Below, piece after piece: positions 36,315 to 41,465 of a stretch of DNA of 64,000 nucleotides. The notes under the pieces were generated by a model, which saw only the letters and a program-made list of their open reading frames with translations, searched no databases and had not been told where the DNA came from. The stretch covers positions 896,001 to 960,000 of the forward strand of contig CAWFXA010000003.1 of assembly GCA_963819655.1 (NCBI GenBank), written 5' to 3'. Numbering within the stretch: position 1 is the first letter of the stretch; each line of letters starts with the position of its first letter. The position numbers and the translations under genes are program-made. The stretch is from an uncultured Chloroflexia bacterium. Its GTDB lineage: Bacteria; Chloroflexota; Limnocylindria; Limnocylindrales; CSP1-4.

Positions 36315-37921
36315 CGCGGCCAGCGTTCGGTGGCTGCCTGGCGACCCGCGCGTCGCCACCCGGACTCAGCCGGTGCCCGATCGTCTTTGCGCAAAGACGC
36401 CGCCTCCGTTCGGTGGGCGGGATCGGACGCGCTCGCGGCCGCGGTGATCGCCGCCACCGCCGTGACGCGTGCCCGGTCCACCGGGCCGTCCCAGCGCTCC
36501 CCCACCCAATCGGTCGACAGCGTGGATCCGGTCTCGTCGCCGAAAGCTGGGTCGCGGACGAGCGCCCGGTGGAACGGCAGCGTCGTCTGGATGCCACTGA
36601 CGACGACCTCGTCAAGGGCCCGCCGCATCCGCCGGAGCGCGGCGCCCCGGTCGCGTCCGACGGTCATGATCTTGGCGATCAGCGGGTCATAGTCGGGCGG
36701 GACGCGGTCACCCGGACGGATGGCCGTGTCGACCCGGACACCTGGGCCGGAGGGCATGATCCATGCGCCGATGCGGCCGGGGACGGGCGCGAATCCGCGC
36801 GCCGGATCCTCGGCCGCCAACCGCACCTCGACGGCGTGCCGGCGGGGCGTGGCCGCCATCACCGCCACCTCGCGGACGGCGTCGGACAGCGGCTCGCCTC
36901 CCGCCAGCCACAGCTGCTCGGCGACGAGGTCGAGGTCGGTGACGAGCTCCGTCACGCCGTGCTCGACCTGGAGTCGCGCGTTGACCTCGAGAAACCAGAA
37001 GCGCCGGTCCGGGTCGAAGAGGAACTCCGCGGTCGCCGCGTTGTGGAGGCCGGCGGCGCGAGCCGCCCGGACCGCCATCGCGTGCAGCTCGGCTCGCTCA
37101 TCCGCCGACAGGCCGGGCGCCGGTGTCTCCTCGACAAGCTTCTGGTGCCGTCGCTGGACGGAGCAATCCCGCTCGCCCAGGGCGACGACATCGCCCAGCT
37201 CGTCACCGAGCAGCTGGACCTCGATGTGTCGCGCCGGTCGGATCTCATGCTCGAGGTATACGGATCCGTCCCCGAACGCCGCCAGTGCCTCGGCTGCGCC
37301 TGCGGCCACCGCGGCCGGCAGGTCGGTCGGCGTCTCGACGCGGCGCATGCCTCGTCCGCCCCCGCCCGCTGCCGCCTTGACGAACAACGGAAAGCCGATC
37401 CCCTCCGCGGCCGCGACGACGCCCTGGATCTGATCCGCACGGTCGATCGGCAGCAGTTCGAATGACCCGGGCACGACCGGCACGCCGGCCGCCATCACCG
37501 TCCGCCGGGCGACGAGCTTGTCGCCCAGCGCCTCGATCGCGCTGGCGCGCGGACCGATGAAGACGAGCCCGGCATCGGTCACGGCTCGGGCGAACGACGC
37601 GCGCTCCGACAGGAAGCCGTAGCCCGGATGGATGGCTTCGGCCCCGGTCGCGAGTGCCGCCTCGATGATCGCGTCGCCGCGGAGATAGCTCTCCCCGGCC
37701 GGGGCCGGGCCAAGACGCACCGCCGCGTCCGCAGCCCCGACGTGGGCCGCATCGACATCCGCGTCGGAGTAGACGACGACCGTCTCGATGCCGAGCTCGC
37801 GACACGTCCGAATGATGCGCACGGCGATCTCGCCGCGGTTCGCGACTAGGACCCGGTCGAACGGTCGCGTCCGGCCGTCCTTGCGCAAAGACGCGGCCCC
37901 CGGCCGGGCGACGCTCGTCAC
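36311..37921 (-). CDS. accC: Biotin carboxylase subunit of acyl-CoA carboxylase
   Basis: [53 protein letters not shown]. Confidence 0.94.
36382..36399. other. Perfect palindrome CGTCTTTGCGCAAAGACG (putative non-canonical parS)
   Basis: 18-bp perfect inverted repeat; one of four related copies around parAB. Confidence 0.7.
37876..37893. other. Palindrome CGTCCTTGCGCAAAGACG (putative non-canonical parS)
   Basis: One mismatch to the 36382 copy. Confidence 0.7.
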
Positions 37922-39462
37922 AGCGGGATGTTGCCGTGCTTTTTCGGTGGGTTCGTGTCCCGCTTGTCGGCGAGCATCTCCAATGCCTTGATCAGACGCG
38001 GCCGCGTCTCGGATGGCCGGATGACGTCGTCGACGTAGCCCCGCGCGGCCGCGACATACGGATTGGCGAACCGCTCCTCGTAGTCGGCGACCAGCTGAGA
38101 CCGCGCCGCCTCCGGGTCGGCCGCGGCGGCGATGTCGTCCCGGTTGAGGATGTTGACCGCGCCCTCCGCACCCATCACAGCGATCTCCGCCGTCGGCCAC
38201 GCCAGGTTGATGTCGCCGCGGACGTGTTTGCTCGACATGACGTCATAGGCCCCGCCGTACGCCTTTCGCGTGATGACGGTCAGCTTGGGGACCGTCGCCT
38301 CGCAATACGCATAGAGCAGCTTCGCGCCGTGACGGATGATCCCGCCATGCTCCTGTCCGACGCCGGGCAGGAAGCCAGGGACGTCCACCAGCGTCAGCAG
38401 CGGGACGTTGAAGCAGTCACAGGTACGGACGAAGCGGGCCGCCTTCGTCGATGCGTCGATATCGAGTGCGCCTGCGAGGACCGCGGGCTGCTGCGCGACG
38501 ATCCCGACGCTTCGGCCGGCGAGCCTCGCGAACCCTGTGATGATGTTCGGCGCCCAGCCCGGCTGGATCTCGAGGAACGCGCTGTCGTCGACGATCCGCT
38601 CGATGACCCCATGCATGTCGTACGGCTTCGACGCATCGTCTGGGACGATCGAGTCCAGCGCGGAATCCATCCGGTCCGTCGGATCGGACGTCTCGACCCG
38701 CGGCGCATCGCCGAGGTTGTTCTGCGGCAGGAATCCGAGGAGACGTCGCGCCGAGGCGAGAGCGTCCGCCTCGTCGCGCGCGGCGAGATGCGCCACTCCG
38801 CTCCGGGTCGTATGCGTCGTCGCGCCGCCCAGCGTCTCGGCGTCGACATCCTCGTGGGTGACGGCCTTCACGACACTGGGCCCGGTGACGAACATGTAGC
38901 TCGTTCCGTCGACCATGATCGTGAAGTCGGTGATCGCCGGCGAGTACACCGCGCCACCGGCGCACGGCCCCAGGACGAGGGACAGTTGAGGCACGACCCC
39001 GGACGCAAGGGTGTTGCGCAGGAAGATGTCCGCGTAGCCGCCGAGCGAGACGACCCCCTCCTGGATCCGTGCCCCGCCGGAGTCGTTCAGGCCGACGATC
39101 GGTGCCCCGACTTTCATCGCAAGGTCCATGACCTTACAGATCTTTTCGGCATAGGCCTCGGACAGGGATCCACCGAAGACGGTGAAGTCCTGGCTGAAGA
39201 CGAACACCAGCCGACCGTCGATCGTGCCATGGCCGGTGACGACACCATCGCCGAGGAACGCCGTTTCGGCCTCCGGGTTCCGATTCGTGACGAATGCATC
39301 GAGCTCGACGAACGAATCTGCGTCAAGCAAGAGGTCGAGTCGCTCGCGCGCGGTCAGTTTTCCGCGTTCGTGCTGTTGATCGATACGGTCCTGGCCGCCT
39401 CCCAGTCGCGCCTCCGCGCGCATCGCCTCAAGACGCGCCAATCGCTGTTCATTCGTCGACAC
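37918..39462 (-). CDS. pccB: Propionyl-CoA carboxylase carboxyltransferase subunit
   Basis: [61 protein letters not shown]. Confidence 0.94.
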
Positions 39463-39487
39463 CAGTCGGACCTCCGCGAAAATGGCG

Positions 39488-39505
39488 TGTCTTTGCACAC
39501 GGACA
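39488..39505. other. Degenerate palindrome TGTCTTTGCACACGGACA (putative parS variant)
   Basis: Two mismatches to the reverse complement of the parB-internal copy; lies in the pccB-parA intergenic region. Confidence 0.55.
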
Positions 39506-39526
39506 TGGGCCATCATACGGTCACAG

Positions 39527-39569
39527 TTATCCACGGAAATGGTGAACAACTCGCGCCGCGTGTGGATAA
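39527..39569. promoter_or_regulatory. DnaA boxes
   Basis: TTATCCACG (39527, 8/9), GGTGAACAA (39541, weak), TGTGGATAA (39561, perfect). Confidence 0.7.
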
Positions 39570-39664
39570 CCGGGTGCCCGCGATAACAATTGCTGGAGTA
39601 GCATGACCGGACGTCCCGCCCGTCCCCGTCAGCCCAGGGCGATCGATTCCGAGGTGATGCCCCA

Positions 39665-40435
39665 GTGAAGAACGTCATCGCGATCGCGAATCAGAAGGGC
39701 GGCGTTGGTAAGACGACGACAGCGATCAACCTCGCGGGGGCACTCGCCGAAGAGGGCTATCGAGTCCTCTGCATCGATATGGATCCCCAAGCGAACCTCA
39801 CCGCGGGCCTCGGCGTGAACCTCAACACCGTCGAGCGATCGATGGCCGACGTCCTCGCCGACGGCCGCTCGAAACTCGTGGACGTGATCCTCGCGACCGA
39901 GAGCCCGGGCATCGATGTGGCTCCCGCCCATATCGATCTCGCTTCGACCGAAGGCGAACTGTTCACCGCGTTGGGGCGGGAGAACATCCTGAAGGAGGCG
40001 ATCGTCGGCCAGCTCAAGGGTTACGACTACGTCCTTATCGATTGCCCACCGAACCTCGGCCTGCTCACCGTCAATGGGCTGGTAGCCGCCAACGGCGTGA
40101 TCATCCCGGTCCAGACCCAGTACTACGCGATGAAGGGCCTGACCAATCTCGTCAAGGTCATCAACGCGATCCGTCTCAAGCTGAACCGGAACCTCCGGAT
40201 CCTAGGTCTCCTGCCAACGTTCTACGACGGCCGGACGAACCTGGCCCGCGACATGCTGGACGAGCTGCGTGTCGTCGGCGACCACCATGTCTTCAGCAGC
40301 ATCGTCCGCAACACCGTCAAGCTCGGCGAGGCTCCGCTCGTCGGGCGACCGATCACGACGTACGCCGGCAGCAGCGAGGCTGCCCGGACGTACCGCGAGC
40401 TCGCACGAGAGGTGGTGGATCTTGGCACGGCCTGA
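39665..40435 (+). CDS. parA: ParA/Soj family ATPase
   Basis: [39 protein letters not shown]. Confidence 0.95.
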
Positions 40436-41465
40436 TTTCCGCGCAGCGGCCGCGCGCCGCCTGTCGGAGGAGCGCGAGCTCTCCCCTGCCATCGTCAGCC
40501 TGCTGTCGCCGGACAGCCCGACGCGCAGCGTCGGCGTCCGCATCGTGCCGCTCGACCACATCGAGCAGAACCCGGAGCAGCCGCGCCTGGCGATGAACCC
40601 GGAGGCGCTCGACGAGCTCGCGGCATCGATCCGTGAGCACGGTGTCCTCCAACCGATCCTCGTCCGGCCCGTCGGCCCGAACACATACCAGCTGATCGCC
40701 GGCGAACGCCGCTGGCGCGCCTCGAAGCAGGCGGGCCTAACGACCATCCCGGCGCTGATCGAAGAGATCGACGACGACACGGCGCTCGAGATCTCCATCA
40801 TCGAGAACCTCCAGCGCGAGGACATCTCGCCTCTCGACGAAGCGGCGATGTTCGACCGCATGGTGTCCGAGCACGGGTACAGCATCCGCAAGCTCGCCGA
40901 CAAGCTCGGCAAGGACAAGGGCTACGTCGAGAACCGGCTCCGCCTGGCCGACGCCCCCGACGAGGTGCGCGAGCTCGTGTCCTTGCGCAAAGACACGCTC
41001 TCGCACGCGTACGAGCTGATGAAGGTCCAGGACCCGAAGCGACGCCGGCGACTCGCCGACCAGGTCGCGCGTGGCGAACTGACGCTCATCAGGCTTCGAG
41101 ACAAGATCGAGGGTCGTCGGGCGCGTCAGCCACAGCTGGCAGAGGAGCTCGAGGGCGCCGAGGCCGTCGTGATCCTCGAGGCAGTGATGATCGAGGACGA
41201 GCCGACCAACGGCTCGGCCATCGAGCCCGAGACCGACGCCGAAGCGCGACCCGCGCCGCGTCGGCCACTCAGCGACGACTCGCTCGTCAACGCCAAAGCG
41301 TCGCTCGCAGAGGCCCTCGACGAGTTGGTCGGCGTGCTCCGTGAGCCCGACGCGATACGTTCGATCGGCGACGTCGACCGGGACAATCTCGCGAAGTATC
41401 TGACGATCTCGAAGCTGCGGCTGGAGAACGCGATCGCGCTCGTCCGATCTGGCGAACTCGACTGA
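40422..41465 (+). CDS. parB: ParB/Spo0J family CTPase with divergent HTH
   Basis: [55 protein letters not shown] start after GAGGTGG. Confidence 0.93.
40976..40997. other. Palindrome CGTGTCCTTGCGCAAAGACACG inside parB (putative non-canonical parS)
   Basis: 22-bp inverted repeat with one mismatch. Confidence 0.7.

Follow-up and report, generated by a model that had tools for sequence, protein, structure and literature searches.

A window of 64,000 nt was analysed from an uncultured Limnocylindria bacterium (assembly GCA_963819655.1; 3,487,778 bp in three contigs; window C3:896001-960000). It encodes a ParA-type ATPase and a ParB-family protein beside genes for propionyl-CoA carboxylase (pcc) and methylmalonyl-CoA mutase (mcm). 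Four copies of a palindrome lie in and around these genes. The palindrome is probably the cognate parS-like site of this ParB, which would make the locus a putative second ParABS system with a new DNA specificity. The first-pass annotation of the window had proposed such a pairing. The comparative tests that it suggested all lend it support, through the uniqueness and position of the sites, their codons, their co-distribution with the protein and its specificity residues. Judged from gene content, the whole class Limnocylindria carries this pair, named ParAB2 here, in addition to a canonical ParAB-parS system, and the C-terminus of ParB2 is restricted to the class.

Palindromic sites in the window and the genome

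The window was scanned for YGTCTTTGCGCAAAGACR with up to three mismatches. Four matches were present, compared with a mean of 0.08 in shuffled sequences, and none of 100 shuffles reached four. A fifth match outside the 4.6-kb cluster was not found in the 64-kb window at this threshold. Four related palindromes within 4.6 kb and none elsewhere in the window had been described before. Both statements were borne out, apart from a slip of two bases: the fourth palindrome starts at 40978 and not at 40976.

Site 1 (36382-36399) is a perfect 18-bp palindrome, CGTCTTTGCGCAAAGACG, without mismatches, placed within the C-terminal tail of the biotin carboxylase open reading frame (ORF), 22 nt upstream of the ORF start of the biotin carboxyl carrier protein (BCCP; 36359). 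Site 2 (37876-37893; CGTCCTTGCGCAAAGACG, one mismatch) follows the stop codon of pccB (37918-37920) by 24 nt and precedes the first conserved residue of the carboxylase by 15 nt. Site 3 (39488-39505; TGTCTTTGCACACGGACA) is degenerate, with three mismatches, and sits in the spacer between pccB and parA2. It is 16-17 nt upstream of the inferred GTG start of pccB (39471) and about 160 nt upstream of parA2. Site 4 (40978-40995; TGTCCTTGCGCAAAGACA, one mismatch) lies inside parB2 and encodes V-S-L-R-K-D-T just after the helix-turn-helix. The consensus of the sites is YGTC(Y)(T/G)TGCGCA(A/C)(R)GACR.

In the whole genome, the 16-mer core has 1, 3, 5 and 13 matches at up to 0, 1, 2 and 3 mismatches, respectively. 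All three matches with at most one mismatch fall within the 4.6-kb cluster. The two matches added at two mismatches are at C2:502216 and C3:137084. Genome-wide dispersal, which the earlier proposal regarded as evidence against a ParB site, was observed neither in this genome nor in four same-class genomes described below (G041-G044).

Conservation of sites and ParB2 in relatives

The comparison covered 80 species-level loci with a ParB2 of 63-89% identity by best segment, 1.02 Mb in total, and sites were counted at up to two mismatches. The related loci belong to Limnocylindria/Limnocylindrales within the Chloroflexota. Four families of the class were distinguished: f1, its sister family f2 with genomes of about 1.1-1.2 Mb, f3 from a different order, and f4. 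A site inside parB2 was present in 80 of 80 loci, at +518 to +554 and in one case at +1028, where the start of the match differs. The pccB-parA2 spacer has a site just upstream of pccB in 69 of the 71 loci with a complete spacer; this equivalent of site 3 usually has none or one mismatch in the relatives. The junction of pccB and biotin carboxylase has one in all 65 loci covering the region, and the end of the carboxylase, the place of site 1, in 25 of these 65. Outside the four places, no site was found in the 1.02 Mb, which includes 463 kb downstream of parB2. The core of 16-18 bp is nearly invariant and varies at positions 4, 5, 12 and 13 only. The ten bases on each side of the three non-parB sites have no consensus across the 80 loci.

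Scans of whole assemblies gave the same picture. All 24 genomes of the same genus have three to four copies with at most one mismatch, compared with 0-1 per genome for a reversed-pattern control. The copies lie within a few kb of parB2 where contigs allow. With a slightly relaxed pattern and at most one mismatch, G041-G044 had 4, 4, 4 and 3 matches, and all 15 are within about 5 kb at parB2. One of these genomes is a single chromosome record of 3.62 Mb. The clusters comprise three to four copies within about 4.6-5.5 kb, one of them inside parB2. In family f3, three sites accompany an identical gene order. An additional copy, GTCCGTGCGCAAAGAC, is located about 6-6.5 kb downstream of parB2 in two same-genus genomes (G005:C6:173798 and G016:C2:2103382). 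No counterpart of it was detected in the 80 species loci or the genome studied here.

The predicted co-occurrence with this ParB clade was found as well. Among 400 genomes of the phylum, the exact motif occurs in 19/23 genomes of f1, 6/16 of f3, 0/4 of f2 and 0/2 of f4, thus in two of the four families of the class, and as a lone match in 1/355 other genomes. The ParB2-specific C-terminal 105 residues were detected in all 45 class genomes (f1 23/23, f2 4/4, f3 16/16, f4 2/2) and in none of the 355 other Chloroflexota genomes. G082, one of the 355 and flagged as unpublished, was counted only as a genome without a match for C-terminus and motif. Full-length ParB2 relatives are encoded by 24 of 24 same-genus genomes, three of them partial or in pieces, and by 16 of 16 f2 genomes. 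In the same-genus genome G007, the parB2 match (C2:229963-231029) consists of three pieces in different frames, which may stem from frameshifts or assembly errors. Literature on the motif or on ParB-parS of this kind in Limnocylindria or other Chloroflexi was searched for, and none was found among the papers listed.

Selection on the DNA

Codons at the site were compared with the rest of the same 80 parB2 genes. Valine is encoded by GTG in 80/80 sites (20% elsewhere) and arginine by CGC in 80/80 (47% elsewhere). Serine is TCT in 42 and TCC in 38 of the 80 sites, compared with 2.2% and 25% elsewhere; TCG and AGC, which account for 64% elsewhere, do not occur at the site. Leucine is TTG in 62/67 (3.2% elsewhere) and lysine AAA in 50/79 (3.7% elsewhere). 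The suggestion that such unusual AT-rich codons reflect selection on the DNA rather than on the protein holds strongly, with TTG, TCT and AAA being rare in the remainder of these genes.

The peptide SLRKD had been noted in the three coding copies of the window, and the translations agree: AASLRKDG and AASLRKDD are encoded in the 36311-38200 ORF and VSLRKDT in ParB2. The translation of the N-terminal tail of the carboxylase at site 2 is uncertain, as the start may be the GTG overlapping the pccB stop or a TTG inside the palindrome. The same place in parB2 encodes AERSD in f2 and AQRYD or AARYD in f4, hence the protein does not need SLRKD. In about a third of the loci, the number of bases between the site at the junction of pccB and carboxylase and the conserved start of the carboxylase cannot be divided by three. 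SLRKD in the carboxylase tails is therefore a side effect of the DNA motif.

Positions 4 and 13 are mostly C·A or T·G, which are not complementary, and the half-sites vary independently. Among 496 half-sites, 288 read YGTCTTTGC and 118 YGTCCTTGC. Independent variation of half-sites agrees with a DNA-binding protein dimer but not with a hairpin.

The ParB2 protein

By its sequence, ParB2 is a bona fide ParB with intact N-domain, cytidine triphosphate (CTP) motifs and helix-turn-helix. Pfam assigned ParB_N (E-value 8.3e-37) and HTH_ParB (7.1e-17). A weak match to Pfam KorB covers 51 residues (26.3 bits at a cut-off of 22.3; E-value 7.4e-6). The HTH_ParB match is far higher, and ParB1, the canonical ParB of the genome, has no KorB match. 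Conservation was evaluated for 49 ParB2 sequences that represent all four families. The arginine-rich GxRRxRA CTP-binding motif (G91-E92-R93-R94-W95-R96-A97) is invariant, as is the nucleotide-pocket motif E125-N126-L127-Q128-R129-E130, which aligns to the ENLQRE of Noc. The recognition helix G-K-D-K-G-Y-x-E-N-R is also invariant. The best sequence relatives in the PDB were Noc, Caulobacter ParB, Thermus Spo0J and Myxococcus ParB (E-values 1e-36 to 1e-40). Foldseek had its top matches with ParB and Noc structures, including DNA-binding domains.

The AlphaFold2 model has a mean predicted local distance difference test (pLDDT) of 81.9. Residues 33-230 are confident, 233-272 are disordered and two long helices span 282-340. 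The C-terminus is a class-specific two-helix domain in place of ParB_C. Residues 275-344 were predicted as a homodimer, with an ipSAE interface score of 0.54 compared with 0.00 for the best control; the runs share at least 79% of the contacts and have a pLDDT of at least 72. Among proteins solved as same-chain pairs, 20 of 30 reached the mark of 0.54, compared with one of 23 solved as single chains.

Positions 173, 179, 184 and 201 set the preference for parS or the Noc-binding site (NBS), as reported by Jalal et al. (PMC7383237). According to that study, ParB has R-T-A-G and Noc Q-K-K-R at these positions, and parS-specific variants keep an invariable arginine at 173. ParB2 has K-R-D-S, counted along a gap-free alignment to Noc. 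ParB1 has R-T-D-G, matching the parS-specific R-x-x-G. Since K-R-D-S replaces R-x-x-G, ParB2 is not expected to prefer canonical parS. Residue 184 is aspartate or glutamate in f1 and f3, alanine or histidine in f2 and glycine or serine in f4. Judged from these residues, the change in f2 and f4 may go along with a changed or relaxed site.

A tree calculated with a quick method placed ParB2 (20 sequences) and Chloroflexota ParB1 (25 sequences) in separate clades connected by a very long branch. The ParB1 sequences of the class itself cluster together among the 25, and ParB2 is not their sister. Sequences of five loci were omitted from it, four because of in-frame stops (L148, L150, L158 and L159) and that of L160 because it is unpublished. 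G082 was omitted too. A recent duplication of ParB1 in the manner of Noc is not supported, because the clades are separate and the branch is very long. A plasmid origin was also considered and rejected. No plasmid record covers at least 80% of ParB2; the best match covers 59-63% at 36-42% identity, and the best matches comprise only N-domain and helix-turn-helix, with 36-47% identity.

Two ParAB systems in one genome

The genome has two ParB_N genes. The other one, ParB1, is encoded at about 500 kb on C2, a contig other than that of the window, and contains ParB_N, HTH_ParB and ParB_C (E-value 2.4e-10). parB1 follows a parA gene, adjoins gyrB and gyrA and is about 31 kb from dnaA. Beside ParAB1 lies the only canonical parS of the genome at up to two mismatches, TGTTTCACGTGAAACG at C2:501840. 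As a canonical ParAB with parS is located beside gyrBA, the ParAB of the window is the second system. Identity is 47% between ParA2 and ParA1 (BLASTP) and, over N-domain and helix-turn-helix, about 40% between ParB2 and ParB1. The claim that the palindrome differs from canonical parS agrees with the position of this single canonical parS at ParAB1.

A palindrome copy with two mismatches, GTCCTTGCACAAAGAC, is located at C2:502216-502231, upstream of parA1 and 376 bp from the canonical parS. Among the matches listed for same-genus genomes (at most one mismatch), none is a comparable copy beside ParB1. The C2:502216 copy is probably a chance occurrence, because it does not recur among those listed matches.

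The relative position of both systems is visible in a chromosome record of 3,624,741 bp. It has dnaA at 1.072 Mb, ParB1 at 1.029 Mb and two parS at 1.0275 Mb. ParB2 and four sites are at 3.361-3.366 Mb, 1.29 Mb from ParB1 or 35.5% of the chromosome. ParAB1 and ParAB2 share a contig in four further assemblies from two orders, and ParB1 and ParB2 are separated by about 39% (G042), about 41% (G044), 35% (G078) and 37% (G066) of the genome size. The canonical parS sites, one to two per genome in G041-G044, sit at ParAB1. The par operons and most parS sites normally lie within the 'ori domain', the 20% around oriC (PMC7022226). ParAB2 is outside this domain if oriC is near dnaA and the canonical parS. 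The first-pass annotation had suggested a test for clustering near parAB/oriC. The motif clusters at parAB2, and the cluster is 35-41% of the chromosome away from the canonical system.

Genes of the locus

parA2 (39665-40435, plus strand) encodes a Soj/ParA-type Walker ATPase of 256 amino acids with KGGVGKT and Pfam matches to AAA_31 (7e-62), CbiA and MipZ. parB2 (40422-41465, plus strand) encodes the ParB-family protein and has an inferred TTG start at 40422 that overlaps the end of parA2. Divergent from parA2 is the gene of a pccB-type carboxyltransferase with an inferred start (37918-39471, minus strand; Carboxyl_trans, 2.5e-201). It is followed on the same strand by biotin carboxylase (36311-37921; Biotin_carb_N, CPSase_L_D2 and Biotin_carb_C), an ORF read from the GTG overlapping the pccB stop with an uncertain true start, and by BCCP (35829-36359; Biotin_lipoyl, 2.9e-18). 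The methylmalonyl-CoA mutase (34127-35824, minus strand) and an epimerase-like Barstar-glyoxalase (33224-34126, minus strand), both assigned by Pfam, are cluster neighbours kept across the class. The glyoxalase, encoded downstream of the mutase, has an N-terminal Barstar (barnase-inhibitor) domain (Pfam, 1.5e-9), an unusual fusion.

The conserved gene order of the 80 loci is mce-mcm-bccp-bc-pccB<>parA2-parB2-ubiA-acyltransferase. It contains no other DNA-binding or regulator gene and no transposase or integrase. Synteny with mcm/pcc or mutase neighbours is also found in f2 and f3. parA2 adjoins parB2 in all f1 and f3 loci covering the region. It is absent in three of eight f2 loci (L035, L036 and L039, from genomes G025, G028 and G027), in which parB2 directly follows the mutase gene. 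A search of 33000-42500 with Rfam gave no credible RNA family.

A DnaA-box-like inverted pair, TTATCCAC at 39527-39534 and TGTGGATAA at 39561-39569, lies between site 3 and parA2. TGTGGATAA is one of only two perfect 9-mer DnaA boxes in the genome. At least two boxes with up to one mismatch and a start-to-start spacing of 33-35 bp are present in 62 of 70 related spacers, and the other eight have one box. The pair could be a DnaA control of parAB2 and pccB, the site of another regulator or a part of both divergent promoters. DnaA-box clusters were tried as a marker for oriC and discarded: four were found, one of them the ParAB2 locus, and none near dnaA. A repeated 'CCCGAAGGG' element has promoters that coincide with two of the four clusters and with a single box elsewhere; the box may thus be a motif of the upstream promoter region. 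Of the 14 copies of GTGGATAA in the genome, four (C2:1026629, C2:1280669, C3:551078 and C3:551310) are about 30 nt upstream of a -10-like box, which is followed by a repeated '(C/G)(T/C)(T/G)GCCCG(A/G)AGGG' element. These four GTGGATAA-box promoters look like a small family driving a short structured RNA or leader.

Possible functions of the palindrome

In the proposed mechanism, a ParB2 dimer held together by its own helical C-terminal domain would recognise two independent half-sites YGTCYKTGC. ParB2 would then close as a CTP-gated clamp and spread over the pcc-parAB2 region of about 5 kb. ParA2 would move or position the nucleoprotein complex, which would mark a locus at a distance of roughly a third of the chromosome from the canonical parS. 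As the three non-parB sites are near the 5' ends of the pccB, biotin carboxylase and BCCP cistrons, the complex may have a regulatory role in addition and modulate how the pcc operon is expressed. A more far-reaching version has two orthogonal centromere systems on one chromosome throughout the class, with ParB2 clamps, loaded beside the cistron starts, positioning a mid-arm or ter-proximal region and gating the pcc/mcm operon as the chromosomal metabolic counterpart of KorB; this version is speculative and doubtful.

Several observations weigh against a ParB2 site in a partition system. ParB2 has no Pfam ParB_C domain, whereas ParB1 has one. None of 16 f2 genomes has the motif at up to one mismatch apart from one lone match, and neither of two f4 loci examined has a site within 20 kb. 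In both families ParB2 is retained and its recognition helix, GKDKGY(V/I)ENRLRL, is unchanged, yet clear sites are lacking; ParB2 can thus persist without the motif cluster. The three f2 loci without parA2 have parB2 and no site at all. The spacer site is 160-373 nt from the parA2 start, and the sites of f1 and f3 track the pcc operon as tightly as parAB2. The statement that ParAB2 is far from the origin depends on the use of dnaA, gyrBA and canonical parS as markers: GC skew was too weak to place oriC and ter on all three contigs, and a DnaA-box cluster next to dnaA was not found.

The f2 and f4 loci were inspected for remnants and replacements of the motif. The pcc genes are absent from the f2 locus. 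A degenerate copy with one to two mismatches to a relaxed pattern is located at -876 to -879 from parB2 in all five f2 loci that keep parA2, and is absent in all three without parA2. No alternative palindrome emerged: perfect 14-mers did not recur across the eight f2 loci, and the two f4 loci had nothing in common, with a lone GTCCGGCGCGCCGGAC inside parB2 of one. The other f4 locus, L136, has an unrelated 37-nt perfect hairpin, GTGTCGCGCAAGGGACA-TTC-TGTCCCTTGCGCGACAC, in the stretch from a tRNA gene to parA2. The arms of the hairpin include CTTGCGC, a core that recalls the motif, but the first f4 locus does not share it.

Gene regulation offers another explanation for the layout. ParB2 would bind the sites mainly as a KorB-like CTP-dependent regulator of the pcc operon and its own operon, with ParA2 as a co-regulator or remnant. 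KorB of RK2, a CTPase clamp of the ParB family, acts from palindromic operators in both partition and promoter silencing (PMC11790492), and the weak Pfam KorB match is present in ParB2 and not in ParB1. The distances fit an operator: the spacer site is 4-50 nt from the pccB start (median 17, n=69), the junction site precedes the conserved start of the carboxylase by 5-54 nt in 66 of 67 loci, and further sites are near the BCCP start. The mcm/pcc synteny holds across three families. The position at gene junctions may, however, be a by-product, since a compact operon leaves only its junctions free of coding sequence. The best-conserved site, present in 80/80 loci, is inside parB2 and far from any promoter. 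The residual site of f2 stays with parA2 although pcc has left the locus, and a KorA/TrbA-like partner is missing from the conserved gene order of the 80 loci. A mainly regulatory ParB2 is thus considered unlikely. It is quite improbable that the palindrome is the operator of a different transcription factor of the propionate/methylmalonyl-CoA metabolism and that ParB2 binds something else. Three of the four sites flank pcc cistrons, and ParB2 of f2 and f4 combines an unchanged recognition helix with the lack of a clear motif. But the conserved neighbourhood of the 80 loci encodes no regulator, and the motif is almost absent outside the ParB2-bearing class (one lone match in 355 genomes). Without a link to ParB2, a rare-codon site in 80 of 80 parB2 genes would be difficult to account for, and gapless 16-bp inverted repeats concentrated within and near parAB are the typical layout of parS.

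If the element acted on the RNA level, it would form a short hairpin close to ribosome-binding sites and adjust how the pcc cistrons are translated or how stable they are. Sites near three cistron starts and a possible stem of 6-7 bp with a GCGC loop are compatible with it. Yet positions 4 and 13 have no compensatory pattern, and sequence, not pairing, is conserved. The parB2 copy is in the middle of a gene, there is no Rfam match and a T-run is missing, which makes such an element very improbable. Chance similarity or a small dispersed or mobile repeat is a next to negligible explanation. Only the small copy number speaks for it, against the result that none of 100 shuffles reached four sites, the fixed positions in 80 species, the lack of copies elsewhere in the genomes (up to one mismatch) and the lack of a transposase or integrase in the conserved gene order.

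Comparison with known systems

The reading of the palindrome as the site of ParB2 was compared with known ParB-family systems. Chromosomal ParB-parS is among the most conserved bacterial protein-DNA pairs. Natural changes of specificity, such as in Noc and on secondary replicons, are the main windows on its evolution. Like the ParABS systems of Bacillus and Thermus (Soj/Spo0J-parS) and Caulobacter (ParAB-parS; PDB 6t1f, 1vz0, 6sdk), the locus has a ParA Walker ATPase followed by a ParB with GERRxRA, ENLQRE and helix-turn-helix. ParB2 is about 35-41% identical to these ParBs over about 190 residues of N-domain and helix-turn-helix. The site has the same architecture, a gapless 16-bp inverted repeat with few copies in or beside the par operon and one inside parB. 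A parS site inside spo0J is known from B. subtilis. The differences are in sequence and location. The ParB2 site is GTCTTTGC|GCAAAGAC, whereas parS is TGTTTCAC|GTGAAACA. ParB2 has K-R-D-S and not R-x-x-G, and a class-specific helical C-terminus in place of ParB_C. ParAB2 is a second system, 35-41% of the chromosome from the canonical one and outside the ori domain.

Noc-NBS of Firmicutes (PDB 7ol9, 7nfu, 6y93) is also a chromosomal ParB paralogue beside a canonical ParB, and Noc is the top PDB sequence match of ParB2 (E-value 7.5e-40). A further likeness is a different 16-bp palindrome, which Noc acquired through changes at the same helix positions, with Q-K-K-R compared with K-R-D-S in ParB2. 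NBS sites are scattered over the chromosome, and Noc is not known to have a ParA of its own. In contrast, ParB2 has three to four sites only at its own gene locus and a dedicated ParA2. The ParB2 site together with K-R-D-S would add a third natural endpoint to the specificity map of ParB and Noc. An orthogonal pair of ParB and site would also be usable for multicolour labelling of DNA loci, an application for which ParB/parS and Noc/NBS are used (PMC11109969, PMC11798528).

KorB-OB of plasmid RK2 (PDB 8qa8/8qa9; PMC11790492) is a ParB-family CTPase on palindromic sites that combines partition with gene regulation. ParB2 aligns to KorB in the PDB with an E-value of 1.2e-18, and several sites of its locus are beside gene starts. 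Unlike KorB, the ParB2 system is chromosomal and class-wide and not plasmid-borne, its site sequence is different and a KorA/TrbA partner was not seen. The fixed link to the pcc/mcm operon hints at a CTP-clamp regulation of chromosomal metabolic genes.

Two ParAB pairs, each with its own palindrome and without cross-talk, are known from multipartite genomes such as Vibrio cholerae (ParAB2-parS2) and Burkholderia, where they belong to separate replicons. Limnocylindria differ from this arrangement: ParAB1 and ParAB2 are both on one chromosome, as seen in the single 3.62-Mb record. If the palindrome is the site of ParB2, a second centromere-like locus would exist on the same chromosome outside the origin domain, which raises the question of what is positioned there.

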